Shown piece by piece: positions 46,139 to 60,566 of a stretch of DNA of 64,000 nt (position 1 is its first letter; every line of letters begins with the position of its first letter). The position numbers were made by a program, and so were the translations under genes. Origin of the DNA: Planctomycetota bacterium (GTDB taxonomy: Bacteria; Planctomycetota; B15-G4); contig JAJDEO010000041.1 of the NCBI GenBank assembly GCA_029259745.1, positions 19,374-83,373 on the forward strand, written 5' to 3'. A model generated the notes under the pieces. It had not been told where the DNA came from. It searched no databases and worked only from the letters and a program-made list of their open reading frames with translations.

Positions 46139-47236
46139 ATGCCGCGCCTCTCCTCCCTCGTCACGCGGGCCGCCGTCGCCCTCGCTCTTCTGGGCGGCGC
46201 GCTGAGCGCTCAGGACCTCGTCGGCGAGATGACGCGTGTGCTCGGTTCGCTCGAGGGCGTGACGTATCGCGTCGTCTCGGAGGTTTCCGAGGGTGGCGAG
46301 GAGTTCTGGCCGGCAGTCGACGCGCTCGTCGCTGTGCAGCGCACGCCCAAGGGCATCGCCATGCACGTCGAGGGTTCCTGGCAGGACGGCACGACGACGC
46401 GCCGCTTCCGCTGCGACGATGACGGCTTCACGATGACGTGGGTCGACGCCGACATCAACGCGCACCACACCACGCAGAATCTCGCGACGCGCCAGAAAGC
46501 ATGGAGCCGCGCGCCCCTCGTCCAAGCGATCGAACCGCTGTTTGCGAGCCCACCGACCGTCGAGCAGCTCGTCGGCAAGGGGACCTCGCGCACGACGACA
46601 ACCGTCGGCCTCGACGGCGTCGAGACGCGCGGCCTCGTCATCACGCCGCGCGGCGATCCCGCGGTGGCGAAGTACGAACTCGCCGTCGGAGCGCACGACC
46701 GTCTCCCGCGTCTCATCGAGCGCACGCTCGTCGGCGTTCAGAAGCCTGACGGAAGCACATGGCGCGGGACAGTCACGCGACGCTTCACGTCGGTCGTCCC
46801 GCGACGTGCTCGTCTCCCGGAGGCTGCGTTGCGCAACGCCCAGGGTCAGACCGTCTCCACAACGGAGCTGACCGGCCAACCGACGCTCGTCGTCTTCTGG
46901 GCGACGTGGTGCCACGCGTGTCATGAGGTCCTGCCGCTGGTCGCCGACCTCGGCACGCGTCATGGCGCCCGGCTCGTCGCCATCCACGCTCATGACGAAG
47001 CGCGTCGCAGCGATGCGCGCAAGGCACTCACTGCGCTCAGCCGCGACTACGAACTGCGTACCGATGGAACCGCACTCGCAACGCAGCTCGGCGTGACGTC
47101 GCTTCCGACGATCCTGCTCCTCGATGGTGACGGTCGACTTGTCTCGACGAGTGTCGGGCTCGACACGGCGTCCCATTCTCGACTCAGCCGTGCTCTACAG
47201 TTGGTGAATCAAATACCGAGCTTGCCGTCACGCTGA
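46139..47236 (+). CDS. Secreted TlpA/ResA-like thiol:disulfide oxidoreductase with an N-terminal extra domain
   Basis: The signal peptide is MPRLSSLVTRAAVALALLGGALSA. The C-terminal thioredoxin fold carries WATWCHACHE (CxxC). Confidence 0.7.
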   Translation: MPRLSSLVTRAAVALALLGGALSAQDLVGEMTRVLGSLEGVTYRVVSEVSEGGEEFWPAVDALVAVQRTPKGIAMHVEGSWQDGTTTRRFRCDDDGFTMTWVDADINAHHTTQNLATRQKAWSRAPLVQAIEPLFASPPTVEQLVGKGTSRTTTTVGLDGVETRGLVITPRGDPAVAKYELAVGAHDRLPRLIERTLVGVQKPDGSTWRGTVTRRFTSVVPRRARLPEAALRNAQGQTVSTTELTGQPTLVVFWATWCHACHEVLPLVADLGTRHGARLVAIHAHDEARRSDARKALTALSRDYELRTDGTALATQLGVTSLPTILLLDGDGRLVSTSVGLDTASHSRLSRALQLVNQIPSLPSR

Positions 47237-47400: not shown

Positions 47401-48279
47401 TTGGAGACATCGACATCGAAAGGGTATCCGCGGCGTCTGGTGATGGAACCAGGCGCTCGGTCGAATGCCCACGAGTCCCAACCACTCCTCCTCGCGATGC
47501 ACCCCATGAGCTCGCTCGATACGCTGCTGACCGAACTCGACGGTCGCCTCCTTCCCGAATCGCTTCTCGCCTCGCTGGCCGAGTCGATGAACCATGTCAT
47601 TCCCTTCGACCTGATGGGCGTGGCCGCACTCGATCCCGACGGCCAGACATTCGAAGTCGTCGGCGCCACCGATGCCGCGGGTCGGCCGCAGGTCGGCGCG
47701 CGCTTTGCCTTCGCCGGCACGGTCGGCGGCTGGGTCGCCTCGAACCGGCGCGCGTTCGTCGGCACGAGCCGCGAACAAGTCCGCACCTTCCCCGCAACCT
47801 ATGCCGACTTCCAAGACAAGCAGCTCGAGTCGAACTGTGTCCTCCCACTGAAGCTCGCGCAGGGCACTGGCGTCATCTACTTCGTCTCGTCGCGGACCGG
47901 CGCCTACTCGCCCGCGCGGGTCGAAGAGTACGAGCAGCTCGCTGAAGCCCTCACGCCAGCCATCGATGCGGCCGTGTCGTATCTGAACCGCTCGCGTGGA
48001 AACAAGGACGAGACGCTCACGCGGGCCGACGGCGAGTTGAATCTCGACGGCGTCCAGCGCCGGCACATCACGCGCGTGCTCGAGATGACCAGTTGGGTGA
48101 TCGAGGGCCCGTACGGGGCCGCCGCCGCACTCGGCCTCGCGCCCAGCACGCTGCGACATCGCATGCGCAAGTTGGGTGTCGCGCGCCCGACCGGTGCGCA
48201 GAAAAACGGTTCGAACGGTCACGTCGGCGGCGGTGAACCTGTCGTTCAGATGGCGACGAATGGCGGATCGGCTCGGTGA
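47401..48279 (+). CDS. GAF domain plus Fis-type HTH transcriptional regulator lacking a sigma-54 AAA+ module. The start is uncertain (TTG at 47401; ATG options at 47446 and 47497).
   Basis: The GAF-like region runs LLTELDGRLL…GTGVIYFVS. The C-terminal HTH_8 reads RRHITRVLEMTSWVIEGPYGAAAALGLAPSTLRHRMRKLGV. Confidence 0.6.
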   Translation: METSTSKGYPRRLVMEPGARSNAHESQPLLLAMHPMSSLDTLLTELDGRLLPESLLASLAESMNHVIPFDLMGVAALDPDGQTFEVVGATDAAGRPQVGARFAFAGTVGGWVASNRRAFVGTSREQVRTFPATYADFQDKQLESNCVLPLKLAQGTGVIYFVSSRTGAYSPARVEEYEQLAEALTPAIDAAVSYLNRSRGNKDETLTRADGELNLDGVQRRHITRVLEMTSWVIEGPYGAAAALGLAPSTLRHRMRKLGVARPTGAQKNGSNGHVGGGEPVVQMATNGGSAR

Positions 48280-48288
48280 TCGCTCGCC

Positions 48289-49047
48289 TCAGGGTGCTGC
48301 CGGCGTGAATCCGGTGGGCTCGGCGGAGAGAACGAGCCATTCACCCATCATCGCGACATCGCCTGTCACGATCAGACTTTCGCCGACGAAGTCCAGCACC
48401 TCGGCGTTCACCGTCCGGCCGTCGCTGCCGACGAGCAGGTAGACGTCGGCGTCGTCGCCGTTGGTCACGACGAAGAGCGGCGGGATCCCGCCGGCGATGC
48501 AGTTGATCGCGCAGGCGCGATGGGTCTTCAGGCGAGCGGGCTTCATCACGCCGAGCCAGCACTTGCTGTCGACGATCTCACCGACGAGGCGTCGGCTGCC
48601 GAGCAACCTCCGCGCAGGTTCGGCGCGGCTCGACGGCGTGCCGTCGAGGATTTCCACGCCGCCGTCTGCCACCTCGATCAGCGTCACGGCGCCGTTGTAG
48701 ACGAGCGTCCCGTCGATGCGCGCGCGCTGACCTTCACGCCCGTCGACAAGGTCATCCGCGCCGTGCTTGCCGAGCTTTACGAGCAGGTAAGACGACACGC
48801 TGGCGCCCTCGCTCGACGGCCGCGTGACCTCGAGCATCGGCACGGGATCGCTGCGCAGCACGCCCTCGAACGTCTTGACCTCGAGGAACTCGAAGACCGC
48901 GTCGTTGAAGGGGTCTTGCTCGGCCGTCAACCCCGCAGCCAGGGCCACGGCAACGACGATGAGAGCCACGGCGACGCGTCGCATCGTGCCACCCACCGAA
49001 ACCGGCGCGCGGTCTTGGTAGCCGACGTAGAAGTCGTCCTTCGTCAT
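48289..49047 (-). CDS. Hypothetical membrane-anchored protein, the last gene of the Rieske operon
   Basis: Its start sits in an ATGA overlap with the upstream gene's stop. The N-terminal anchor is RRVAVALIVVAVALAAGL, and a conserved-looking Cys pair reads CAINCIAGG. Confidence 0.5.
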   Translation of the reverse strand: MTKDDFYVGYQDRAPVSVGGTMRRVAVALIVVAVALAAGLTAEQDPFNDAVFEFLEVKTFEGVLRSDPVPMLEVTRPSSEGASVSSYLLVKLGKHGADDLVDGREGQRARIDGTLVYNGAVTLIEVADGGVEILDGTPSSRAEPARRLLGSRRLVGEIVDSKCWLGVMKPARLKTHRACAINCIAGGIPPLFVVTNGDDADVYLLVGSDGRTVNAEVLDFVGESLIVTGDVAMMGEWLVLSAEPTGFTPAAP

Positions 49048-50078
49048 GCCTCGCCTCCGTGATGAGCATCCCTGGCCGGCCGCGGCTTGGCGTCGATCCA
49101 GACGCGCCCGTCACGCAGCTCGACCGCGAACGTGGGCACCGACTCGGTGAAGGGCGCGGGTGAGACGCCGGTCGTGCGCTCGTACTCGTAGCCGTGCCAC
49201 GGGCAGGTGACGCAGTCGCCGATGAGACGTCCCTCGCCGAGCGGGCCGTTCTGATGCTGGCACGCGTTCGACAAGGCAAAGACCTCGTCGCCGTCGCGAA
49301 AGATCGCGACCCGCTCACCGCTGAGACAGGCAACGTGCCCGTGCCCATCGATCGGAAGTTCGTCGAGTGCGATGACGTCGACGAACCCGTCGCGTGGTGC
49401 AGCCAGACTTCGATCGCGACGCCCCGTCTCGCGCAGCCCCGCGAAGAGGTGCAGCGCCGCGAGGCCGGCGAAACCGACCACCACGAAGCCGCTCAGCAGT
49501 GGACTCGACTCGGCCTGCAGGGCGCCCAGCGCCACGTGCATGACGAGCGCTGCGTAGGCCACGTAGACGAGCATGTGCAGCGCCTTCCACGTCGGCGCCG
49601 AGAGGTTCGCGAGCCAGAAGTCGTGACTCGTCGCGGCCATGAACGCGAGAATCACGAGCGCGAAGAAACCGAGCGTCTGGAACGGGAAGCGCATCAGATC
49701 GTCGTAGTGAGTGTTCGACGCAAAGAGACTCACGATCGGATTGAGGTCGCCCTGTGTGTGGTACATGAGCATCGACAGAGCGCCGTGCACGAGCGCCATG
49801 GAGAACATCGCCACGCCCATGTGCCGGCGGTTGTAGAGCAGCGGAAGCAGGCGCGGTGCGAGGCGACACGCCGGGCCGATGGCGAGGATGACGTGGAGCA
49901 GCACGAACGCGCCGGACCCGAAGCCGCGGATCATGAGTACCTCGGCGCTCGCTTCGGGGTGCGTCGTCAGGCCGATCGCGATGAAGACGGCGAGATAGAG
50001 CACGATGCCCGTGACGAGCGCGGTGTCGTAGAGGCGCTTCTGACGATTCCAACCGACCGCGCGGTAGTTCAGGCTCAT
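49044..50078 (-). CDS. Ferric reductase-like transmembrane (heme-b type) domain fused to a C-terminal Rieske [2Fe-2S] domain
   Basis: The ORF-track ORF was trimmed to MSLNYRAVGW, with GGAGGG 6 nt upstream and an ATGA overlap with the upstream gene. It has 6 predicted TM helices with conserved His residues. The Rieske motifs are CQHQNGPL…CPWHGYEY. Confidence 0.7.
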   Translation of the reverse strand: MSLNYRAVGWNRQKRLYDTALVTGIVLYLAVFIAIGLTTHPEASAEVLMIRGFGSGAFVLLHVILAIGPACRLAPRLLPLLYNRRHMGVAMFSMALVHGALSMLMYHTQGDLNPIVSLFASNTHYDDLMRFPFQTLGFFALVILAFMAATSHDFWLANLSAPTWKALHMLVYVAYAALVMHVALGALQAESSPLLSGFVVVGFAGLAALHLFAGLRETGRRDRSLAAPRDGFVDVIALDELPIDGHGHVACLSGERVAIFRDGDEVFALSNACQHQNGPLGEGRLIGDCVTCPWHGYEYERTTGVSPAPFTESVPTFAVELRDGRVWIDAKPRPARDAHHGGEA

Positions 50079-50563
50079 CGCGAGCCCTCCACCGGATACT
50101 CGACGTGCAGGACGATCTCGTCGTGGCCGAGGCTGTAGAGCGCGAGCATTCCGCGTTCGACGTTCGCGCCGGGCGGCAAGGTGAACGCGGCCTGGCGATC
50201 TGCAGACATCGCACCGAGCAACACGGCGCCCTCGAGCATCGAGTCGCCGGACACGGCGCGGATGTCGCGCCAGTACACGAGCAGGTCGGGACGTGGGATC
50301 CCGCGACGCGTCAGAACGACGCCCCAGTTGCCGTCCTCGAGGCGACGCCAGTCGGCGTCCCAGACATCGCCGCTGACCGTGTTGCGCGACGTCGTTCGAC
50401 GCACGGACGTTCCCCACGAGGCCAGCTCGGCGCGGTCGACGACGAGCTCGCCGGGAACGACACCCGGATGCCGTACGGACAACGCCGACGCCAGGCCGTA
50501 GCCCACCAACGAAGTCACCAACACCCACAGCACGACGTGTCGACGGCGCCCCGAGCGGATCAT
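50075..50563 (-). CDS. Hypothetical membrane-anchored protein
   Basis: The ORF-track ORF was trimmed to MIRSGRRRHVVLWVLVTSLVGYGLASALS, with AGGAGG upstream. It has ATGA overlaps at both ends. Confidence 0.5.
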   Translation of the reverse strand: MIRSGRRRHVVLWVLVTSLVGYGLASALSVRHPGVVPGELVVDRAELASWGTSVRRTTSRNTVSGDVWDADWRRLEDGNWGVVLTRRGIPRPDLLVYWRDIRAVSGDSMLEGAVLLGAMSADRQAAFTLPPGANVERGMLALYSLGHDEIVLHVEYPVEGSR

Positions 50564-50826
50564 CGCTCGCCTCCTGCCGCGCGACGATGCGCATTCGACT
50601 CGACGCGCGGCGTCGTGCGCCCGCCAAACCAACGCAGCATCAGTGCGGGCCAGAGCAGCGTCGCGCCGGGCAGCAGGAGCACGCGGAACCCCCACGTTCC
50701 CTCACGCGCTGCGGGATCGATCGCAGCGGCGCCTTTCCATGCGAACGGCACGGCGAACAGGACCCCGATCGCGAGGTAGATCCCGAGCGTCGTGGCGAAT
50801 CCGCCTGCGAGTGCTTCGATGTCCAT
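50560..50826 (-). CDS. Small membrane protein of 88 aa
   Basis: It has two predicted TM helices (TLGIYLAIGVLFAVPFAW and FRVLLLPGATLLWPALML) and is translationally coupled to the downstream gene. Confidence 0.45.
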   Translation of the reverse strand: MDIEALAGGFATTLGIYLAIGVLFAVPFAWKGAAAIDPAAREGTWGFRVLLLPGATLLWPALMLRWFGGRTTPRVESNAHRRAAGGER

Positions 50827-50842
50827 GGCTGCCAGCTCGCGT

Positions 50843-52774
50843 TCAGATGAGGTCGGTGTCGGTGATCACTTCGACGAGCGCGGGACCGTCGTGCGCCAGG
50901 GCGCGCGTGAGGGCGTCATCGAGCTCATCGGCCGACGTGACGCGCAGACCGAGCGCGCCACAGTTCTCGGCGAACTGCGCGAAGTTGGGGTTGTGCAGCG
51001 AAGTTTGCCACACCTCCCACTCACCGGCGCGCTGCTCCTTGCTGATCTTCCCGAGCTCGCTGTTGTTCAACAGCACGTGCGTGATGTTCATGCCGTACTT
51101 CACGGCTGTCGTGACCTCGCCCATGTACTGACCGAAACCACCGTCGCCACTGATCGAGACGATCGTGCGCTCTGGCGCGGCGCACCAGGCACCCATCGCG
51201 GCCGAGAAGCCGAAACCGATCGACCCGAGGTAGCCCGACATGAGCACCGACTGGCGCGTGCACTCGAAGTAGCGGCCGAAGGAGTAGGTGTTGTTGCCGA
51301 CATCCACGGCGAGCACGGCGTCATCGGGGACGTGGCGCGTGAGGGCGGCGAAGACCGCCGTCGAGTTGACGCCACGACCGCGATCGTCGACGAGCCGTCG
51401 CTGTTTCTCATTGCGCCAGATCTCCCAGCGCTCGGCGATCTCGCCCTGACGGTTCGTCGCCGGCGTGTGGGCAGCAAGCGCCTCGTGCATCGCCGCGCAC
51501 GTTGCACCGATCTCGCCCCAGACGGGGATGTCGATGGCGTGGAAGCGTCCGAGCGCGAGGCGATCGAAGTCGACCTGGATCGTCTTGATCTTCGACGTGA
51601 TGCCGGTGTGGTTCGAGAACGATGCGCCGAAGACGACGAGCAGGTCGGACTCGTTCATGAACCAGCTCGCAACCGGCGTCCCACTGCGTCCGAGGACACC
51701 GCACCCGAGTGGATGACGATCGGAGATGAGCCCCTTGCCCTTGAACGTCGTGAGCACAGGAGCACCGAGACGTTCAGCCAACGCAATGACGGAGTCGGTA
51801 TGTTCGCGCGCTCCGTAGCCCACGATGAAAACGGGGCGTTGCGCGTCACTCATCGCCGCGAGCGCTTGGCTCAGCGCGTCGGCCGACGGGGCGATCGCGA
51901 CGTCCGCCAGTCGGCCCTCGGGAGTGCCGGCCTCGGCGTCGGGCACCTCGATGTTCTGAACTTCGTCGGGGAAGATGAGGTGCGAGACATCGCGCTGCAC
52001 CAGCGCATGCTTGACCGTGAGGTTCGCGAGCTCGGCGTGCTTGCTGTTCGGCAGCACCGTCTGGCTGAAGCACGTGACGGCCGCGAACGCCGAGGCGAGG
52101 TCGACCTCCTGGAAGTTGCCCGGACCGAGCACCTGCGTCGCCACCTGGCCCGTGAGCGCGATGGCGGGCACGCGATCCGAACGCGCGTCCCAGAGCCCCG
52201 TGAGCAGATTCGTCGCGCCGGGACCAGCAATCGCGAGGCACGCGGCGGGTCTTCCCGTGAGCTTGCCGAAGCCCGACACGGCGAAGGCCGCGGCGCCCTC
52301 GTGCCGCACACCGATGTACGTGAGCTTGCCCGTGACTTCGAGGCGGCGCAGCGCATCGGCGAGGCCGAGGTTGCTGTGGCCGACCATCCCGAAGACATGG
52401 GTGACGCCCCAGTTCACGAGCGTCTCGGCGATCACATCCGACACCGTGCGCACGTGCGCGACATCCTCTTCGACACCGACATAGACGCTGCCGTCACGCA
52501 CCTCCGTCGGGAACACCTCGACACCATCATCGAAGCCCGGCGCCTTGCCCGTGCAGGGATGGTAGTCCCAGCCGTGCCAGGGACAGCGCAGCAGGCCGTT
52601 CTCGATCGAGCCCTCGCCGAGCGGCCCGCCCTGGTGCGGACAGCGGTTCTCGAGGCAGGTGTACTCACCCTCCAAGTGCGTCAGCGCGAAAGAGTGTGTG
52701 CCTGCCGTCACGGTGCGGACGCGACCTTCGGGAACGTCGGCAGCGTCGGCGACCTTGATCCACTGCATCGTCAT
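50843..52774 (-). CDS. Rieske [2Fe-2S] domain fused to a thiamine-pyrophosphate-dependent enzyme (pyruvate oxidase / acetolactate synthase family)
   Basis: The N-terminal Rieske motifs are CPHQGGPL…CPWHGWDY. TPP-enzyme domains follow: an N-terminal Pyr region (GVTHVFGMVGHSNLGLADAL), a middle domain, and a C-terminal TPP-binding region (GSIGFGFSAAMGA…ISGDGGFGQYMGEVTTAVKYGMNITHVLLNN). Confidence 0.7.
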   Translation of the reverse strand: MTMQWIKVADAADVPEGRVRTVTAGTHSFALTHLEGEYTCLENRCPHQGGPLGEGSIENGLLRCPWHGWDYHPCTGKAPGFDDGVEVFPTEVRDGSVYVGVEEDVAHVRTVSDVIAETLVNWGVTHVFGMVGHSNLGLADALRRLEVTGKLTYIGVRHEGAAAFAVSGFGKLTGRPAACLAIAGPGATNLLTGLWDARSDRVPAIALTGQVATQVLGPGNFQEVDLASAFAAVTCFSQTVLPNSKHAELANLTVKHALVQRDVSHLIFPDEVQNIEVPDAEAGTPEGRLADVAIAPSADALSQALAAMSDAQRPVFIVGYGAREHTDSVIALAERLGAPVLTTFKGKGLISDRHPLGCGVLGRSGTPVASWFMNESDLLVVFGASFSNHTGITSKIKTIQVDFDRLALGRFHAIDIPVWGEIGATCAAMHEALAAHTPATNRQGEIAERWEIWRNEKQRRLVDDRGRGVNSTAVFAALTRHVPDDAVLAVDVGNNTYSFGRYFECTRQSVLMSGYLGSIGFGFSAAMGAWCAAPERTIVSISGDGGFGQYMGEVTTAVKYGMNITHVLLNNSELGKISKEQRAGEWEVWQTSLHNPNFAQFAENCGALGLRVTSADELDDALTRALAHDGPALVEVITDTDLI

Positions 52775-52798
52775 CAGGAGCCCTCGTGCGGGGAATGG

Positions 52799-54433
52799 TC
52801 AGCCGACACCGGCGAAACGCACGCCCGTCAGACGCGCCGTGTCGTGATCGAACGTCGTCAGGTCGCCGATCGTGAAGTCGGAGAGGTTCGAGCGCCCGGC
52901 AGCTCGCGCCAGCACCTTCATCAGCCCGACGCTCGCGCCGAACCAGTTCGCGAGGCGCTCGGCCGACTTCTCGACATCGAGCCGCGCGCGGAGGTGCGGC
53001 TTCTGCGTCGCGATACCGACGGGACAGTTGTTCGTGTGGCAGGCGCGCATCGCCTGACATCCGATGGCCTGGATCGCGGAGTTCGCGAGGGCAACGCCGT
53101 CGGCCCCGAGAGCCATGGCCTTCACGAAGTCGGCCGGGCGGCGCAGGCCTCCGGTGGCGATCAGCGTGACACCTTCGGCGCGGCGCGCGTCGAGGTGCTT
53201 GCGGGCGCGCGGGATCGCAATGAGCGTCGGGATCGAGATGTGGTCGCGCAGCACCGTCGGTGCGGCGCCCGTTCCGCCGCCGCGGCCGTCGAGGATGATG
53301 TAGTCGACGCCGCTCTCGAGGGCGACGTCGATGTCGTCCTCGATGCGATTGGCGGAGAGCTTGAAGCCGATCGGGATGCCGCCCGTCACGTCGCGCACTT
53401 CTTCGGCGACGCGCCGGAAGTCAGCCGAACGCACGAGGTCCTTGAAGCGCGCCGGCGAGATGGCGTCCTTGCCTTCTTCGAGCCCGCGCACCTCGGCGAT
53501 GCGCCCCGTCACCTTGTGACCCGGCAGGTGTCCGCCGGTTCCGGTCTTGGCCGCCTGGCCGCCCTTGAAGTGAAAGGCCTGCACGCGCTCGACCTTCTCG
53601 AGTGCGAAGCCGAACTTCGCCGACGCGAGCTCGTAGAAGTAGCGTCCATTCGCCTCCTGCTCTTCGGGCAGCATGCCACCCTCGCCCGAGCAGATCCCCG
53701 TGCCGGCGCGTTCGGCGCCGCGCGCGAGGGCGACCTTGGCCTCCTCGGACAGAGCACCGAAGGACATATCGGAGACAAAGAGTGGGATGTCGAGCACGAG
53801 TGGCTTGCGCGCATTCGGGCCGATGACGAGCTGTGTGCCCACGTCCTCGTCGTCGAGCAGCGGAAGCCGCGAGATCTGCGCCGGAAGCACCATGATGTCG
53901 TCCCAGCTCGGCAGACCGGGGACGGGGACGCCCATCGCAGCGACGGGGCCATGGTGTCCGGTCTTCGAGAGACCGTCGCGCGCGAACTGGTGGATCTCAC
54001 GCGTGTGCGGCTCGTCGTCCGTGCCATGCACATCGACGTAGTTCCCGAGGTAGGTGTCGCGGTCGTACGGCTGGGGATTCTCGTTGCCCCAGCTGGCCAC
54101 CTCGTCGCCGTTCACGAAGACCTCGTCCCCGTCGCGCCAAGCCTCGAAGCGCTTCAGCTTCTCGCTGTTGTTGTAGGCACTCACGCCGCTGTCGAGACGG
54201 TAGTCCCAGTCGTGCAGGCCGCAGATGAGGTCCTCCCCGTCGACGTGTCCGTCGGCGAGCAGGGCGCCGCGGTGAAGACAGCGACCGTAGAGCACCGAGA
54301 CGGCGTCATCGTGACGGACTACGACGAGGTCGACGCCGGCGACGAGGGCGTGGGCAGGCTGGCGATCTCCGAGCTGCGACCAGTCTGCGACGCGAACGCC
54401 CGAGTGCGGGGATGACGACATGCGGGACTCCAT
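52799..54433 (-). CDS. Rieske [2Fe-2S] domain fused to a glutamate synthase (GltB/GltS) FMN-binding domain-like oxidoreductase
   Basis: The ORF-track ORF was trimmed to MESRMSSSPH. The Rieske motifs are CLHRGALL…CGLHDWDY. A GltS FMN-domain follows (LDIPLFVSDMSFGALS…GEGGMLPEE…FKGGQAAKTGTGGHLPG…GGLRRPADFVKAMALGADGVALAN). Confidence 0.7.
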   Translation of the reverse strand: MESRMSSSPHSGVRVADWSQLGDRQPAHALVAGVDLVVVRHDDAVSVLYGRCLHRGALLADGHVDGEDLICGLHDWDYRLDSGVSAYNNSEKLKRFEAWRDGDEVFVNGDEVASWGNENPQPYDRDTYLGNYVDVHGTDDEPHTREIHQFARDGLSKTGHHGPVAAMGVPVPGLPSWDDIMVLPAQISRLPLLDDEDVGTQLVIGPNARKPLVLDIPLFVSDMSFGALSEEAKVALARGAERAGTGICSGEGGMLPEEQEANGRYFYELASAKFGFALEKVERVQAFHFKGGQAAKTGTGGHLPGHKVTGRIAEVRGLEEGKDAISPARFKDLVRSADFRRVAEEVRDVTGGIPIGFKLSANRIEDDIDVALESGVDYIILDGRGGGTGAAPTVLRDHISIPTLIAIPRARKHLDARRAEGVTLIATGGLRRPADFVKAMALGADGVALANSAIQAIGCQAMRACHTNNCPVGIATQKPHLRARLDVEKSAERLANWFGASVGLMKVLARAAGRSNLSDFTIGDLTTFDHDTARLTGVRFAGVG

Positions 54434-54624: not shown

Positions 54625-56445
54625 GTGCGCTCGTTTCTCTCCCGAAGAGGCCCGCTCATGGTCTGTCCCGTTCTCCGTCGTTGGCGCTCGGCGCTGGCGA
54701 TCTCGCTCCTCGCGTGCTTTGCCCAGGCCGGCACCGAGTCACTCCCCGGCCTCGTCAAGGCGGCGCCGCGCGGACTGTCCGAAGCCTTCGACGTCGGGGC
54801 CGCGACGACGCAGCACCTCGCGCTGCCCTTCCACGCCACGGCGCCGGTGTCGATCCCCGTGATGCTCGGCGGTGAGTCCTACACGCTCGACGTCGCGCCC
54901 TATTCGGTGCGCTCGTCGAAGTTCGAGGTGCTCGTGCAGGTCGAGGACGGATCGCTGATCCCGTTCGACGTCGGCGCGCCGACGACCGTGCGCGGTGTCG
55001 TGCGCGACGTGCCCGGCTCGATCGTCGCCGGCAACATGTCCGAAGGTCGTCTCACGGCAACGGTCGGCCTGCACCCCGACGACATGCTGTGGGGTATCCA
55101 GCCGCGCTCGGACGTCGACAGCACGGCGCCCGCGTCGGAGCACATCGTCTACTCGAGCCTCGACCGTCTCGCGAGCGATCACTCCTGCGGCAACGATCAC
55201 GCCACCGAGCGCGACGACGTCGACCACGGCCAGACGCCCGCCGCGTCCGACCTCGGCGACGGCGGCAACTTCGTGATCTGCGAGATCGGCATCGACACCG
55301 ACGTGCAGTATTACAACCTCAACGGCAGCTCGATCACGCAGACCGAGAACGACATCGAGTCGATCATCAACTCGACCGATGCGATCTACTCGATCGACGC
55401 GCAGATCCGCTACGAGATCACGACGATCATCGTGCGCACGGCCGAGCCCGACCCCTACTCGTCAACGACGAGCCCGAGCAGTCTGCTGAACCAGTTCGAC
55501 AGCCACTGGTCGTCGAGCCAGCAGGGTGTCCAGCGCGACATCGCGCATCTGTTCACGGGTCGCGACCTCGATGGCGGCGTCATCGGCATCGCGAAGCTGT
55601 CGCAGATCTGCAGCCAGAACAACGGCTACGGCCTGAGTCAGTCGCGCTTCACGAGCAACTTCACGAGCCGCGTCGCGCTGACGGCCCATGAACTCGGACA
55701 CAACTGGTCGGCGTCGCACTGCAACAGTGTCTCCGACTGTCGGATCATGTGCTCGGGGCTCGGTGGCTGCACGGGTGTCGTGACGTCGTTCGCGCCGGTG
55801 AGCATCAACTCGATCAACAACGAGAAGAACTCGTCGGGCTGCCTCGGCCCCGGTTCGCCGCCGGCCCCGCCGTCGATCAGTCAGGTCTCGCCCGAAGCCA
55901 ACAATCTCTTCGGCCCTTCGATCACGCCGATCGAGATCATCGGCCAGAACCTGTCCTTCGTGACGTCGGTGACGGTTGATGGCGTCGTGTTTTCCCAAGG
56001 ACAGTTCGACGTCGTGACGAACGCGCGCATCACGCTGACGCCGCCGACGCCGACGGTGCTCGGAACGGTCAACGTGCAGCTCGACAGCCCGTTCGGCGCG
56101 AGCAGTGTCGCGTCCTTCGAGTGGACGGCACCACCGACCATCCTGTCGACGTCTGGCATCGCCGTCTCGACGTTCGATCACGCATGGAATTACGGCGGCC
56201 CCGTGGCCGACACGGCCTTCCTCGTGATCAGCCTCGCGCCGGGCGTCGTCCCCTTCCAAGGCTTCGACGTCCTCGCGGCGCCGATCGTGCTCAACATCGA
56301 CACGCTCGACGACTTCGGCCTCGGCGACTACACGCTCAACCTGCCGGGCGCCGCGTCCGGCGTGACGTTCTACTCACAGGTCGTGACGTACGACACGGCT
56401 GTGACCGGAACGAGCAACGTGAGCCAGACGCTGGTTGTCTTCTGA
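54625..56445 (+). CDS. Secreted reprolysin/ADAM-like (M12B-type) metzincin metalloprotease with a C-terminal sorting-like domain
   Basis: A signal-peptide-like N-terminus is present. The zinc motif is HELGHNWSASHCN (HExxHxxGxxH). The C-terminal 100 aa resemble the C-termini of 19812..21353 and 29771..32755. Its GC is lower than the flanking DNA. Confidence 0.65.
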   Translation: MRSFLSRRGPLMVCPVLRRWRSALAISLLACFAQAGTESLPGLVKAAPRGLSEAFDVGAATTQHLALPFHATAPVSIPVMLGGESYTLDVAPYSVRSSKFEVLVQVEDGSLIPFDVGAPTTVRGVVRDVPGSIVAGNMSEGRLTATVGLHPDDMLWGIQPRSDVDSTAPASEHIVYSSLDRLASDHSCGNDHATERDDVDHGQTPAASDLGDGGNFVICEIGIDTDVQYYNLNGSSITQTENDIESIINSTDAIYSIDAQIRYEITTIIVRTAEPDPYSSTTSPSSLLNQFDSHWSSSQQGVQRDIAHLFTGRDLDGGVIGIAKLSQICSQNNGYGLSQSRFTSNFTSRVALTAHELGHNWSASHCNSVSDCRIMCSGLGGCTGVVTSFAPVSINSINNEKNSSGCLGPGSPPAPPSISQVSPEANNLFGPSITPIEIIGQNLSFVTSVTVDGVVFSQGQFDVVTNARITLTPPTPTVLGTVNVQLDSPFGASSVASFEWTAPPTILSTSGIAVSTFDHAWNYGGPVADTAFLVISLAPGVVPFQGFDVLAAPIVLNIDTLDDFGLGDYTLNLPGAASGVTFYSQVVTYDTAVTGTSNVSQTLVVF

Positions 56446-56519: not shown

Positions 56520-56909
56520 TCATTCCGGCGCGCCGTGCGCACCGTGGTAGAGGACCTGCGTGATGTAGAGCGGGTTGCCGTCGGGGTCGGCGAAGTAGGC
56601 GAAGCGGACGAACTCGTCTTCCACGATGGGCGCCGGGAAGACGACGCCCCGCTCGGTCAGCGTCGCCATGACGTCCTCGAGCGGCTCGGTCACGTTGAAC
56701 CCGATCGCCATCGATCCGACCGTCCCGGCTTCCGCCGTCTTGCCCGGCACGACGGGGTGCAGCCCGATCATCACGCCGGGACCCGCGTCGATCTCGGCCC
56801 AGTGATCCGACGCCCGCATGCTCAGCTTGAGGCCGAGCGTCTCGGTGTAGAAGTCGACCGAGCGATTGAAGTCCGCGACGTAGAGCGTCGTGTTGCCGCC
56901 GTTGATCAT
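56520..56909 (-). CDS. VOC family protein (glyoxalase / bleomycin resistance / dioxygenase fold)
   Basis: The ORF-track ORF was trimmed to MINGGNTTLYVADFNRSVDFYTETLGLKL, with a repeat of the beta-alpha-beta-beta-beta module. Confidence 0.65.
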   Translation of the reverse strand: MINGGNTTLYVADFNRSVDFYTETLGLKLSMRASDHWAEIDAGPGVMIGLHPVVPGKTAEAGTVGSMAIGFNVTEPLEDVMATLTERGVVFPAPIVEDEFVRFAYFADPDGNPLYITQVLYHGAHGAPE

Positions 56910-57387
56910 GTCAGGATCCTCCGGGAATGAATGTCTGCGGCCGAGGACCGCCGCGTCGAGTGTCGGCGACGCATCGACGCACGGCAAGCGGCGCGGCTGG
57001 CATGGCCCGCGAGGAAACGGGACCCGCCGGCGCCGGAGCGCGACATTCTGGAGGTCGACAGAGCGGCGTGTTCCCCCAGGGCCCGTGCATCCCTTGATCT
57101 CGTCGATGCCCGGAACGCGAGGGCGACCGGGGCCAGCAGGCACTCGACCACTGTGCGACCAGTGGCTACCCGCTCGATCACGCCATCGATCGGTTGCTCG
57201 AGTTCGCTGCCCGCGCGAAAAGTCACTTCACCGGCATCGAGAATCGGGCGCAACGCCCGCGACGACGCCGTCGCGCAACGGCGCACGCGGTCCGATGTGC
57301 TCGAGGAACGCGACGCCGCGCGCCAGCTCAAACCGGCGAGCGCGACCGGCACGTCGACCACACGTTCACGTCATGGCGTCACTGCCG

Positions 57388-58359
57388 TCAGCCCCGCCGT
57401 AGCTTCGCGATGAGTTCGTCGGAGAGTTCGCGCACGACGAAGAGCGGCGAGCGGTCTTCGTCGTCGGAGCGCTCGAGCACGTCGAGCACGCGGTCGGCGA
57501 GGCCGGCCATGCGCGCGGCGATCTGGTCTTTCTGACCGAGCGTCGTCGAAGCTCCGACGATCGTGGCTCCTGAGTTCGCCAGGATGTCGGGCACGAACGT
57601 GATCCCGCGTGCGTGGAGACGCTTGGCGTCGTCGTCGCTCGCGAGCGGGTTGTTTGCGCCGCCACAGACGACCTGGCAGTGAAGCAACGGAATCGTGAAA
57701 TCGTCGAGGACGCCACCCATCGCACAGGGCGCGAAGACGTCGCACGGCGTCTCGTAGATCTCCTCGGGATCGACGTAATCGAAGCCCGCGACGGGATGCA
57801 CGTCCGCAGCAACGACATCGACGCCCTTCTTCTTGAGGCGCATCGCGAGCCGCAGACCGACGGCACCGAGCCCTTGCACGGCTACGGTTTCGGGCTTCGG
57901 CACGACGGCGCGCATGGTCAGGTCGATGCTCTCGGCCGTAGCCGAGGCGAGACCATCGGGCGCGACGTACTGCGTCGCGGAAGCGAGCACATCGGCGTCA
58001 TCTTCCGTGAAGCCGTAGTCGGGGCCACACCAGTAGCGCCCCCCGAGCGTCTCGACGAACTCACCGAGTTCACGCACCGCCGCTGTGCGATCGAACTCGG
58101 CATCCGACGGAATCGACATCACCGTCTTGCCGCCGCCGCCAGCGATGCCGGCCATGACGACCTTGCGACTCATCGCGATCGCGAGTTCTTTCGCATCGTC
58201 GAGCGCCGCCTTCTCGGAGTTGTAAGACGTGATGCGAATCCCACCGAACGCGTGACCACCAATCACCGCATGCAGGGCGACGAATGCGACCGCCCCTCCA
58301 CACTCCACGCGGTAGACCTCGTCGAACCCAGCGACCTCGATCGTGTCGGACCTCAACAC
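57388..58359 (-). CDS. Glu/Leu/Phe/Val amino-acid dehydrogenase family protein
   Basis: The catalytic-Lys region is GIAGGGGKTV. The Rossmann motif is VAVQGLGAVGLRLAMRL. Confidence 0.7.
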   Translation of the reverse strand: MLRSDTIEVAGFDEVYRVECGGAVAFVALHAVIGGHAFGGIRITSYNSEKAALDDAKELAIAMSRKVVMAGIAGGGGKTVMSIPSDAEFDRTAAVRELGEFVETLGGRYWCGPDYGFTEDDADVLASATQYVAPDGLASATAESIDLTMRAVVPKPETVAVQGLGAVGLRLAMRLKKKGVDVVAADVHPVAGFDYVDPEEIYETPCDVFAPCAMGGVLDDFTIPLLHCQVVCGGANNPLASDDDAKRLHARGITFVPDILANSGATIVGASTTLGQKDQIAARMAGLADRVLDVLERSDDEDRSPLFVVRELSDELIAKLRRG

Positions 58360-58476
58360 CAGACCTCCTCAAGCCCGCGATTTGGAAAACAACTTCGTAC
58401 GCACTATGCGTGACCGTGTGTCCTTCATCGCGCAGGCGGCAGAGGAAGGGACTGACAGGACGGCGGACAGTGTACG

Positions 58477-60459
58477 TCACGCGGTGCCAGACTCACGCGA
58501 CGACCGCCCGAGGGTTCGTGTCGCCCAGATCACGGCCGGCAGGGAGACGGCGCCGATGACCACCGACCAGACAAGCGACGAGTGCTCGTCGAGGAGCCAG
58601 AAGCCGACGCCCAGCATCGAGGCATAGACGAGAGCCAGGCTGGAAAGCGTCCCGACGATCACGGCCGGCCCGTCGCGTGGCACCACGACGTCCGGCGCCA
58701 AACGCGCCACGGGGCCCCACCAACCCAAAGGACGAACTCGTCGGTAGAAGTCGACGAGGAGCGTCGGGTCGGGCTTGCGCGCCCAGGTGGCCAGCGCGGC
58801 CACGAGCATCGAGACGGCGACGACCACCACGAGGCGCCCCTCGATGGTGAGATCCCCGCCGGGGGAAAGGGCCCCGAGCTGCCAGTCGATCTCGCGCAGC
58901 GGCGACCACTCCTCGCGCCAGACGGTGATCGCGACGGTCGTGACACTCGAGGCGATCATCGCCGCGATCTCCGTCACTGCCGTCACCCGCCACCAGAGCC
59001 AGCGCATGGCGTACACCGGACCGACGCCGCCGAGGAACGCGAGGAAGAACGTGAAGAGGCCTTTGATCGACGTCGAGTAGTAGGCCATCACGGCGCCGAG
59101 CACGAGCACCACGACACCCGCTAGGCGCGCCACGGTGACGTAGTGACGCGGGGCGCGGTCGGGAGCGATGAACCGACGGTAGACGTCGTTGACGAAGAAG
59201 GAACTCGCGAGGTTCACGTGCGTGTCGATCGTCGACATGAAGGCTGCGATGAGTGACGCGACGACGAGCCCGAGCACGCCCGTCGGAAGCAGGCGCGCCA
59301 TCATCTCGGGGTAGGCGAGTTCGGAGTTCGTCGCGGCGACGACCTGGCCGATCGCGACCGTGTCGCCCACGCCGACGAGCGCGCGCGGCGACCACGTGTC
59401 GGCCGTCGACCAAGCAACCTCGAGCGCCTCGCCGCCCGCCAGCGGGTTGATCGTGACGAGGCCGTCGGCCACCGAGGCGACGAGGCCCGCCATGGGCGCA
59501 GCGACTTCGGCGTGCGGCAGCAGCACGAGCGACGCCAGCGCGACGGCGATCCAAGGCCAGGGTCGCAGCGCGTAGTTCGCGACGTTGAACCACAGAGCCG
59601 CGAGCATGCCGTGGCGTTCGTCCCGACACGCGGCCAGGCGCTGCACGACGACACCGCCGCCGTCGATGCCATCCTTGGCCCACCACGAGACGCCGAGATT
59701 CACGGCGAACGCGACCAACGGTGCCGTCCAGAAAGCCGACGACATCCACGTGCCTTCACCCGGCGGCGGCACGAACGCGAGCACGGTGTCCTTCCACCCG
59801 CCGACCTCCGCCGCTTCGAGGATCCCGCCGGTACCTCCGGCTGCGTCCCAGGCCAGAACCGCGATCCAGATAGCCCCGACCATGGCGATCACGAACTGCA
59901 GCATGTCTGTGAGCACGACGCCCCAGAGCCCCGCGAGCAGCGAGTAGACCATGCCGATCGAGCAGGCGACGACGAGCGCCGTCAGCTTGTCGACGTCCAG
60001 CAGCACGTCGATGATGCCCGCGGCCGCGAGCAGCACCCAGCTCAGCGTGAGCGTGTTCGTGATGCCGGCGTGGAAGACGCCGAGGAACCCGCGCAACATG
60101 CGCGCCGACTTGCCGCCATAGCGGAGCTCGGCAAACTCGGCCGTCGTCATCACTCCGCCGCGGCGCCACAGGCGCGCGAAGAGGAAGACGGTCAGCAGCC
60201 CGCCGACGGCGAAGCACCACCAGAGCCAGTTCCGCCAGATGCCCTCGTCGCGGACGATGCCGGTGACGAAGAGCGGCGTGTCGGCGGCGAAGGTCGTGGC
60301 GACCATCGACGTCCCGGCGACCCACCACGGCAGCGTGCGCCCCGTGAGAAAGAACTCGTCGACCGACTGACTGGCCCGGCGCGCGAAGATCACGCCGACT
60401 GCAAGAGCGAACACCACGTAGGCCGCGACGACGGCACCGTCGATCCAGGTCCAAGTCAT
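58477..60459 (-). CDS. Sodium:solute symporter family (SSF) transporter
   Basis: The ORF-track ORF was trimmed to MTWTWIDGAVVAAYVVFALAVG. It has about 13 predicted TM helices and SSF-like N-terminal consensus. Confidence 0.7.
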   Translation of the reverse strand: MTWTWIDGAVVAAYVVFALAVGVIFARRASQSVDEFFLTGRTLPWWVAGTSMVATTFAADTPLFVTGIVRDEGIWRNWLWWCFAVGGLLTVFLFARLWRRGGVMTTAEFAELRYGGKSARMLRGFLGVFHAGITNTLTLSWVLLAAAGIIDVLLDVDKLTALVVACSIGMVYSLLAGLWGVVLTDMLQFVIAMVGAIWIAVLAWDAAGGTGGILEAAEVGGWKDTVLAFVPPPGEGTWMSSAFWTAPLVAFAVNLGVSWWAKDGIDGGGVVVQRLAACRDERHGMLAALWFNVANYALRPWPWIAVALASLVLLPHAEVAAPMAGLVASVADGLVTINPLAGGEALEVAWSTADTWSPRALVGVGDTVAIGQVVAATNSELAYPEMMARLLPTGVLGLVVASLIAAFMSTIDTHVNLASSFFVNDVYRRFIAPDRAPRHYVTVARLAGVVVLVLGAVMAYYSTSIKGLFTFFLAFLGGVGPVYAMRWLWWRVTAVTEIAAMIASSVTTVAITVWREEWSPLREIDWQLGALSPGGDLTIEGRLVVVVAVSMLVAALATWARKPDPTLLVDFYRRVRPLGWWGPVARLAPDVVVPRDGPAVIVGTLSSLALVYASMLGVGFWLLDEHSSLVWSVVIGAVSLPAVIWATRTLGRSSRESGTA

Positions 60460-60566
60460 GGGCGGCGAGGGTATCAGACCATGAACGACGGCAGGCGCCG
60501 AGCCGACGAATCGACCCGACGCCTGCACATGCAGGATCCGCTTCCGGCGTCAGACGCCGCGCGCGA

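Follow-up and report, generated by a model that had tools for sequence, protein, structure and literature searches.

A composite operon with three Rieske fusion proteins in a Planctomycetota bacterium: a conserved membrane cassette recurrently joined to a pair of soluble enzymes

We analyzed six genes, here called g1 to g6, arranged in tandem on the minus strand at positions 48289-54433 of a 64,000-nucleotide stretch from a Planctomycetota bacterium (NCBI GenBank assembly GCA_029259745.1, contig JAJDEO010000041.1, positions 19,374 to 83,373 of the forward strand). This whole stretch is referred to below as the window; its G+C content is ~68%. Three of the six encoded proteins carry a Rieske domain, each fused to a different partner. 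The operon is a composite of two parts that are joined recurrently, not obligatorily: a near-invariant membrane cassette, g3-(g4)-g5-g6 (module B), and a frequent pair of genes for soluble enzymes, g1-g2 (module A). We propose, as a tentative reading that we would put a little short of an even chance, that the two parts form a relay in which cytoplasmic dehydrogenases pass electrons through Rieske clusters to a transmembrane heme wire and on to g6. The six genes are as follows:

g1, 52799-54433, minus strand, 544 amino acids (aa): Rieske domain and glutamate-synthase (GltS)-type flavin mononucleotide (FMN)/[3Fe-4S] enzyme
g2, 50843-52774, minus strand, 643 aa: Rieske domain and PoxB-like thiamine pyrophosphate (TPP) enzyme
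g3, 50560-50826, minus strand, 88 aa: small membrane protein
g4, 50075-50563, minus strand, 162 aa: small membrane protein with one N-terminal transmembrane (TM) helix
g5, 49044-50078, minus strand, 344 aa: NOX/STEAP-type bis-heme membrane domain and Rieske ferredoxin
g6, 48289-49047, minus strand, 252 aa: membrane-anchored protein with an invariant Cys3-His site

The original prediction, made from the sequence, had described six tightly packed minus-strand genes partly coupled by ATGA overlaps, and the coordinates agree with it. Start and stop codons overlap as ATGA at three junctions (g3/g4, g4/g5, and g5/g6), and only 24 and 16 nucleotides (nt) separate g1 from g2 and g2 from g3, respectively. 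Since the gaps and overlaps are tight, a terminator scan found no terminator-like site on the minus strand within the block, and the flanking genes lie on the opposite strand, g1 to g6 look like a single transcription unit. The promoter scan returned no sigma-70-like promoter, and terminator-like sites were no more frequent than in shuffled sequence.

Conservation of the cassette and its recurrent association with g1 and g2

We examined two samples of loci. The first, centered on g5, took one genome per species; at least 593 species carried a g5 relative, and the best 80 loci were examined (81 in the counts of neighbor families). The second, centered on g2, came from a metagenome scan with at least 575 matches, of which the best 80 loci were likewise examined. 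The g5 loci span about 14 phylum-level labels (Acidobacteriota, Verrucomicrobiota, Planctomycetota, Bacteroidota/Rhodothermia, Cyanobacteria, Gemmatimonadota, Myxococcota, Nitrospirota, Gammaproteobacteria, Chloroflexota, Actinomycetota, KSB1, Krumholzibacteriota, and Eisenbacteria). Across this range, g5 is immediately preceded by g3 in 77 of the 80 loci and immediately followed by g6 in 76, with both neighbors on the strand of g5. Because of this adjacency, the ATGA coupling, and the existence of gene fusions, we regard g3-g5-g6 as a unit. The fusions join g5 and g6 naturally in a single polypeptide (P0143, P0388, and P0407), and three further proteins (P0395, P0479, and P0399) look like fragments of such a fusion; they are Rosetta-stone evidence for a predicted joint action of the two proteins. 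The remaining member, g4, is fast-evolving and optional: a g4-type cluster of open reading frames (ORFs) was found in 40 of the 81 loci, and at many loci g3 and g5 are spaced by only ~170 nt.

The association of the cassette with g1 and g2 is looser and takes several forms. Within 10 kb of g5, g1 is present in 11 of the 80 loci and g2 in 10, with either gene in 15 and both in 6. Across several phyla they are found co-linear upstream of the cassette, divergent from it, or downstream of g6. The window's order, g1-g2-g3-g4-g5-g6, recurs in a gammaproteobacterial metagenome-assembled genome (MAG; locus L051), where g2 overlaps g3. It is also found in Engelhardtia mirabilis Pla133, a cultured member of the Planctomycetota with a complete genome (CP036287), where 11 nt separate g2 from g3. 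At other loci, the cassette is accompanied by g1 only (L049, L057, L061, and L075) or by g2 only (L043, L055, L059, and L074), which fits two independent donors serving one acceptor. In a neighbor-joining tree of g2, the cassette-adjacent genes occupy at least four separate branches, with one group from Bacteroidota/Balneolaceae, one from Planctomycetota, and several single branches; the tree is indicative only, as the two locus sets were sampled differently.

Could three unrelated Rieske genes have come to lie side by side by chance? Each fusion family is large and its members also occur alone, as chance adjacency would have it. However, by our estimate, random placement in a ~5 Mb genome would yield ~0.3-0.4 such loci, compared with the 10 species for g2 and 11 for g1 (Poisson P(≥10 | mean 0.4) = 2e-11), and the genes come together repeatedly, in several phyla, at junctions that are tight or overlap. 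The neighborhood data contradict chance, which we find hardly credible. The earlier claim that the adjacency of the Rieske-fusion genes is not coincidental is therefore upheld. Its companion claim, that the trio forms an operon unit, stands in part: the three genes are not a fixed trio, since the fixed unit is g3-(g4)-g5-g6 and g1-g2 is separate from it, but the two modules are indeed co-located.

Domain architecture and predicted topology

Pfam matches were counted only above the gathering score (20.3 bits for Rieske, PF00355). On this basis, g1 contains Rieske (46 bits) and Glu_synthase (308 bits); g2 contains Rieske (66 bits), TPP_enzyme_N (109 bits), TPP_enzyme_M (107 bits), and TPP_enzyme_C (126 bits); and g5 contains Ferric_reduct (PF01794, 50 bits) and Rieske (55 bits). 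All of these domains had been named correctly in the original prediction, which had also assigned an intact CxH…CxxH ligand set to each Rieske domain. The Rieske fold is present, and the ligands are conserved among homologs: C52-x-H54...C71-x-x-H74 in g1 (at least 95% conserved in 38 homologs), C45, H47, C64, and H67 in g2 (invariant in 31 homologs), and C273, H275, C292, and H295 in g5 (invariant in 23 homologs). From these ligand sets, all three domains are predicted to bind a [2Fe-2S] cluster. The Rieske domains of g2 and g5 are 45% identical (E 3e-20), and that of g1 is 28-29% identical to either of them.

The three Rieske domains are of the low-potential shuttle (ferredoxin) type, rather than of the bc1 or oxygenase type. 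A Rieske non-heme iron oxygenase system was ruled out for want of a catalytic oxygenase domain: no catalytic alpha-subunit (mononuclear iron; Ring_hydroxyl_A or similar) occurs in the six proteins or among the recurrent neighbors. Similarly, a high-potential Rieske of the bc1/b6f type was ruled out, as the closest relatives are ferredoxin-type and the domain is located at the cytoplasmic end of a protein with six TM segments; the absence of a conserved twin-arginine motif from the g6 anchor is further evidence against it. For g3, g4, and g6, neither Pfam nor NCBIfam gave a family match. None of the six proteins reached an NCBIfam equivalog cut-off, and therefore none is an ordinary PoxB, GltB, or MsrQ. 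By hydropathy, g1 and g2 lack TM segments, g4 and g6 have a single one, g5 has six, and g3 shows at least one that is clear.

The g2 protein is soluble and cytoplasmic. It consists of a Rieske ferredoxin domain (aa 4-78) followed by the TPP_N (110-227), TPP_M (302-428), and TPP_C (491-636) domains. Its best NCBIfam match is the pyruvate oxidase model PRK08611 (393 bits; cut-off 742), and it scores 310 bits against the PoxB-type model PRK09124 (cut-off 792). In the PDB, it matches Escherichia coli PoxB best (3EYA, 232 bits), with g2 109-638 aligned on PoxB 3-527, followed by Lactobacillus pyruvate oxidase (200 bits). PoxB residue 527 corresponds to residue 638 of the 643 in g2, so the alignment ends five residues short of the g2 C-terminus and the membrane-binding peptide of PoxB (~550-572) is therefore absent. 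Given the sub-threshold equivalog scores and the missing peptide, g2 as a genuine PoxB was rejected. The catalytic Glu159 and the GDGG...NN TPP motif are invariant in the 31 homologs, and the middle domain aligns well with that of PoxB, by analogy with which g2 probably binds flavin adenine dinucleotide (FAD).

The g2 family comprises more than 8000 clusters and is unusually conserved, with 67-74% identity and 78% mean column identity across phyla. The sequences compared are labeled Acidobacteriota, Cyanobacteria, Rhodothermaceae, Planctomycetota, and Alphaproteobacteria. Such conservation implies either very strong constraint or recent horizontal spread. Some homologs bear extra N-terminal domains: a rubredoxin (P0066 and P0095), a second Rieske domain (P0090), or two CDGSH-type domains and a small Fe-S domain (P0106). 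Judging by their sequences, these added redox domains look like extensions of the electron-relay end of a g2-type enzyme, and their presence supports a relay role for the Rieske domain of g2.

The g1 protein, also soluble and cytoplasmic, has an N-terminal Rieske ferredoxin domain (aa 14-94) and a glutamate-synthase-type FMN domain (aa 185-512), to which the Glu_synthase match is confined; it has no amidotransferase, GXGXG, or central domain. The [3Fe-4S] motif is kept (C459-x5-C465-x4-C470). In a search of PDB sequences, 'GCQAMRACHTNNCPVG' of g1 aligned to 'GCVMMRACHLDTCPVG' in 7MFM, the alpha subunit of GltS. Among the 38 homologs, which show 61-70% identity, the motifs are conserved to at least 95%. 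A longer ORF with a GTG start, reaching 54553, is unsupported by the onset of homolog conservation. A genuine GltB was rejected as the identity of g1, as the score against the GltB equivalog model was 133 bits (cut-off 1047) and the defining additional domains are missing.

In g5, the Rieske ferredoxin domain (aa 233-317) is C-terminal to a membrane domain with the features of the ferric-reductase-domain (FRD) superfamily: PF01794 above threshold, six TM segments, and paired histidines in TM3 and TM5. The pairs H86/H98 (TM3) and H168/H181 (TM5) are invariant and predict two heme-b sites; they constitute the bis-heme signature of the superfamily, and their spacing, 12 in TM3 and 13 in TM5, is as in NOX (PMC3591440). 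H62, H107, and H152 are also invariant, and H210 is at least 90% conserved. The AlphaFold2 model (predicted local confidence, pLDDT, 80) yielded structural matches of two kinds, the TM domain of NOX5/STEAP4 and Rieske ferredoxins. The N-terminus is basic, and the Rieske domain is placed in the cytoplasm. Because the g5-g6 fusions run from the Rieske domain through the N-terminal motif of g6 into a single TM helix, the g6 N-terminus shares a side of the membrane with the Rieske domain, and the g6 barrels lie on the opposite side. The g5 family exceeds 8000 clusters; the FRD+Rieske architecture was listed once in a domain survey, with no function given (PMC3591440). A C-terminal FAD/NADPH-binding dehydrogenase domain, as in NOX and FRE, is absent from g5, which has the Rieske domain instead. 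We rejected MsrQ of the MsrPQ system as an identity for g5, which scored 38 bits against the MsrQ model (cut-off 130) and has no MsrP beside it; no MsrP-type molybdoenzyme was found in the operon or among the recurrent cassette neighbors.

The other cassette proteins contain conserved elements of their own. Across 36 homologs, g3 has a conserved loop, G-x4-D37-x2-A40...G-F47-R, and a C-terminal E76-x-N-x-H80-R81 in which His80 is invariant; its sequence suggests that it probably has two helices, the second formed by a conserved LLPG..LWP..L stretch. In g4, the single N-terminal TM helix is followed by an extracytoplasmic domain, with R6-x2-H9 at the N-terminus of all 41 family members (41/41) and a P-D-x-L-x-Y-W motif. 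The g6 protein begins with an FYVGY..AP motif, followed by one TM helix (~16-45) and two beta-barrel domains; the motif is placed in the cytoplasm and the barrels outside the membrane. Its invariant motif is GEIVDSKC163-x4-M168-x7-H176-x2-C179-x3-C183-x2-GG-x-PP, its barrels resemble lipoprotein or ligand-binding barrels such as NlpE/CutF and NigD, and its family comprises 2565 representative clusters at 50% identity.

A candidate electron relay and competing explanations

The relay that we propose starts from the architectures, cofactor motifs, topology logic, module conservation, and recurrent co-location described above; analogy with characterized relatives supplies the cofactors presumed bound (FAD in g2 among them), the direction of flow, the contact between the modules, the substrates, and the final acceptor. 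In the cytoplasm, g2 would oxidatively decarboxylate a 2-oxo acid, with electrons leaving singly through its Rieske cluster, probably by way of FAD. The g1 enzyme would use FMN, its [3Fe-4S] cluster, and its own Rieske cluster to oxidize an amino or imino acid or to reduce one. Both would dock on the Rieske domain of g5, with electron transfer from Rieske to Rieske. Within a membrane complex of g3, g4, g5, and g6 that has g5 as its core, electrons would then pass from the Rieske cluster to the inner heme (H86/H168), the outer heme (H98/H181), and the Cys3-His(-Met) site of g6, and this signal-anchored protein would reduce an extracytoplasmic acceptor. The original prediction had offered, as one reading, oxidative decarboxylation of a 2-oxo acid coupled to FMN-dependent reduction and a membrane cytochrome, and this proposed chemistry fits the closest relatives. 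By the same kind of analogy, the system may work like a transmembrane electron carrier of the NOX/STEAP/MsrQ type.

Several points weigh against this relay. At the g2-centered loci, g5 is present in 1 of 80, two more loci show g3 and/or g6 only, and 77-79 of the 80 have no cassette within reach. Because most g2 loci lack the cassette and about half have g1 instead, module A can work without an adjacent module B, and perhaps without module B at all. Conversely, g1 and g2 are missing from 65 of the 80 cassette loci, and the commonest operon partners of the cassette are OlsB/OlsA-like genes (detailed below). Translational coupling in the window is restricted to g3-g6. The direction of electron flow is argued by analogy alone, the docking of g1 and g2 on g5 is a proposal, and the Cys3-His site of g6 could be a mere structural zinc site.

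The main rival explanation takes up the first of these points. It holds that two independent systems are merely co-transcribed, with g1-g2 a closed soluble couple and the cassette unrelated to it: the PoxB-like g2 would oxidize a 2-oxo acid and pass electrons from Rieske to Rieske to g1, which would reduce an imino or 2-oxo acid, in effect a form of ferredoxin-dependent glutamate synthase driven by a 2-oxo acid. The normal entry point for electrons in GltS is the [3Fe-4S] cluster, from which they move toward FMN, as this couple would have it. The g2-centered data favor it as well: g1 adjoins g2 in 35 of the 80 loci, and in 9 of the 18 where at least 3 kb is available on both sides, mostly immediately before it, in the same orientation and 11-150 nt away, whereas a cassette gene of any kind is found at only 1-3 of the 80. 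The other recurrent neighbors of g1-g2 are only a DUF5996 gene, a pyridoxal phosphate (PLP)-dependent decarboxylase, and a Na+/H+ exchanger (the latter two at 6 g2 loci each). However, the g5-centered data argue the other way, as the presence of module A beside module B in several phyla and arrangements, down to the g2/g3 overlap in L051, would be difficult to account for if the two were not functionally linked. Moreover, g1 and g2 can each accompany the cassette alone, as a closed couple does not predict. Finally, g2 often occurs without g1 and the cassette, as in the cyanobacterium Adonisia (L001) and a Rhodothermaceae MAG (L004), and must therefore have other partners too. On balance, we consider the closed couple unlikely, if the most serious of the alternatives.

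The DUF5996 gene (PF19459, ~290-310 aa) is a feature of the g2 loci in its own right. It lies between g1 and g2 in 24 of the 80, for example at 1116-2054 of L134, and is absent from the window. It gave no match in the PDB, and the literature searched contained no paper on it.

Electrons might also run through the proposed relay in reverse, from an extracytoplasmic donor to g6, the hemes, and the Rieske relay, ending in a reductive, GltS-like g1. GltS-type FMN/[3Fe-4S] domains normally run reductively, and the architecture itself is direction-neutral. Nevertheless, a PoxB-like enzyme is a source of electrons rather than a sink, low-potential Rieske ferredoxins accept poorly from typical periplasmic donors, and every characterized member of the FRD superfamily carries single electrons outward, from the cytoplasmic to the outer side of the membrane (PMC3591440). 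We therefore consider reversed flow very improbable.

The remaining alternative concerns the genes that lie downstream of g6, often in the same operon and in many phyla. The recurrent neighbors among the 81 loci were:

OlsB-like N-acyltransferase (144 bits against a cut-off of 350), 32/81 loci
alpha/beta-hydrolase with DedA/VTT and a weak RimK-type ATP-grasp match, 850 aa, 31/81 loci
DinB_2, 25/81 loci
TANGO2, 22/81 loci
SDR, 22/81 loci
DoxX, 18/81 loci
OlsA-like O-acyltransferase, 14/81 loci
YHS, 13/81 loci

The OlsB-like gene comes directly after g6, usually on the same strand with gaps of ~0-30 nt. It is often trailed by the OlsA-like, DinB_2, and TANGO2 genes and by the 850-aa hydrolase/VTT/ATP-grasp-like protein; the loci include L013, L017 (6449-12009), L043, L051 (11833-16531), L061, and L085. 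At L051, L017, and L043, these neighbors and g1/g2 (g2 only at L043) flank one cassette. From its gene content, the region beyond g6 looks like a conserved aminolipid-type gene cluster tied to the redox cassette.

These neighbors suggest a role in the envelope, namely aminolipid (ornithine-lipid-like) modification or redox upkeep, or else MsrPQ-like repair or metal reduction on the outer face, with g1 and g2 as optional cytoplasmic donors. Their recurrence in many phyla speaks for such a role, as does the likeness of the g6 barrels to lipoprotein and ligand-binding barrels; among relatives of g5, STEAP and FRE reduce metals, and MsrQ delivers electrons to a repair enzyme in the periplasm (PMC5449189). 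Nonetheless, the window itself contains no OlsB/OlsA-like, VTT/ATP-grasp, DinB_2, TANGO2, SDR, DoxX, YHS, GMC, DUF5996, PLP decarboxylase, or Na+/H+ exchanger gene, the recurrent neighbors include no candidate for the repair enzyme (MsrP), and among known aminolipid reactions none requires a transmembrane electron wire. The association may in part be Acidobacteriota synteny, as 19 of the 32 OlsB-like cases come from that phylum. As a full account, an envelope role is improbable in our view; as a clue, the lipid-gene association is the strongest lead to the target of the cassette, although it leaves the need for a transmembrane electron wire unexplained.

Genomic surroundings and comparison with known systems

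Around the operon, the window contains the following genes:

46139-47236, plus strand: thioredoxin/Redoxin-fold protein, converging on g6
47401-48279, plus strand: regulator with GAF and HTH_8 (Fis-type helix-turn-helix) domains, converging on g6
54625-56445, plus strand: reprolysin-like peptidase, flanking the g1 side
56520-57143, minus strand: glyoxalase-fold gene
57388-58359, minus strand: short Glu/Leu/Phe/Val-dehydrogenase-like gene
58477-60528, minus strand: sodium:solute symporter

Neither the regulator nor the Redoxin-fold gene recurs beside the cassette in other genomes. The last three genes lie within 56520-60528, ~2 kb upstream of the operon and on its strand; an amino-acid dehydrogenase would produce 2-oxo acids, and this neighborhood does not recur at related loci. 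Antisense to g1 and g2, a 1207-aa ORF on the plus strand (50792-54415) was rejected as a gene: unlike the real genes, it does not pass the GC3/GC2 coding filter, and it is a shadow ORF of the kind typical of high-GC DNA.

The original prediction recognized no characterized system in this arrangement. In agreement, the literature searched, to which most subscription journals do not belong, holds no description of the operon, the Rieske-TPP fusion, the Rieske-GltS fusion, g3, g4, or g6. All six proteins belong to large, widespread, and strongly conserved families that lack an assigned function and occur in lineages that dominate in the environment, among them Acidobacteriota, Planctomycetota, Verrucomicrobiota, Bacteroidota, and Cyanobacteria. 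If the relay is true, it would link central 2-oxo-acid and amino-acid oxidation directly to extracytoplasmic reduction. A broader hypothesis, about which we are doubtful, is that this is an unrecognized and very widespread form of electron export across the bacterial inner membrane, one without recourse to NAD(P)H or quinones. Rieske-bearing 2-oxo-acid and amino-acid dehydrogenases would plug into a Rieske-headed, NOX/STEAP-type bis-heme wire, and g6, as a new Cys3-His family, would carry out a new extracytoplasmic reduction, possibly linked to aminolipids or the envelope. Since Engelhardtia mirabilis Pla133 is a named strain with a complete genome and the same gene order, the idea is open to experiment.

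Each part of the operon has recognizable relatives, from which it departs in a specific way. Like PoxB and Lactobacillus pyruvate oxidase, g2 has three TPP-enzyme domains, the catalytic Glu, and the GDGG...NN motif; unlike PoxB, it has an N-terminal Rieske domain and ends at PoxB position ~527-532, without the lipid/quinone-activating peptide at the PoxB C-terminus. Like the glutamate synthase alpha subunit (GltB, Fd-GltS), g1 keeps the FMN/[3Fe-4S] domain with the DGRGGGTGAAP and GQ-AK-G-GG-LPG motifs, but it has a Rieske domain at the N-terminus in place of the Ntn-amidotransferase, central, and GXGXG domains of GltB. Rieske-type ferredoxins of aromatic-ring dioxygenase systems (BphF, CarAc, and the NDO and TDO ferredoxins) and NirD-like proteins are also among the closest known systems; in contrast to these ferredoxins, each Rieske domain of the operon shares its polypeptide with a dehydrogenase or a membrane cytochrome.

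For the membrane part, the comparison turns on what feeds the hemes and what receives the electrons. The input is an FAD/NADPH dehydrogenase in NOX and FRE, an F420-type/FNO domain in STEAP, and quinol or the Fre flavin reductase in MsrQ (YedZ), whereas in g5 it would be the Rieske [2Fe-2S] ferredoxin domain. On the outer side, the partner in MsrPQ is a molybdoenzyme, and that of g5 would be the uncharacterized Cys3-His double barrel g6. The relay, if true, would thus give the NOX/STEAP/MsrQ class a new type of input, a Rieske ferredoxin, and a new output partner, in a cassette that has two further small membrane subunits, g3 and g4.

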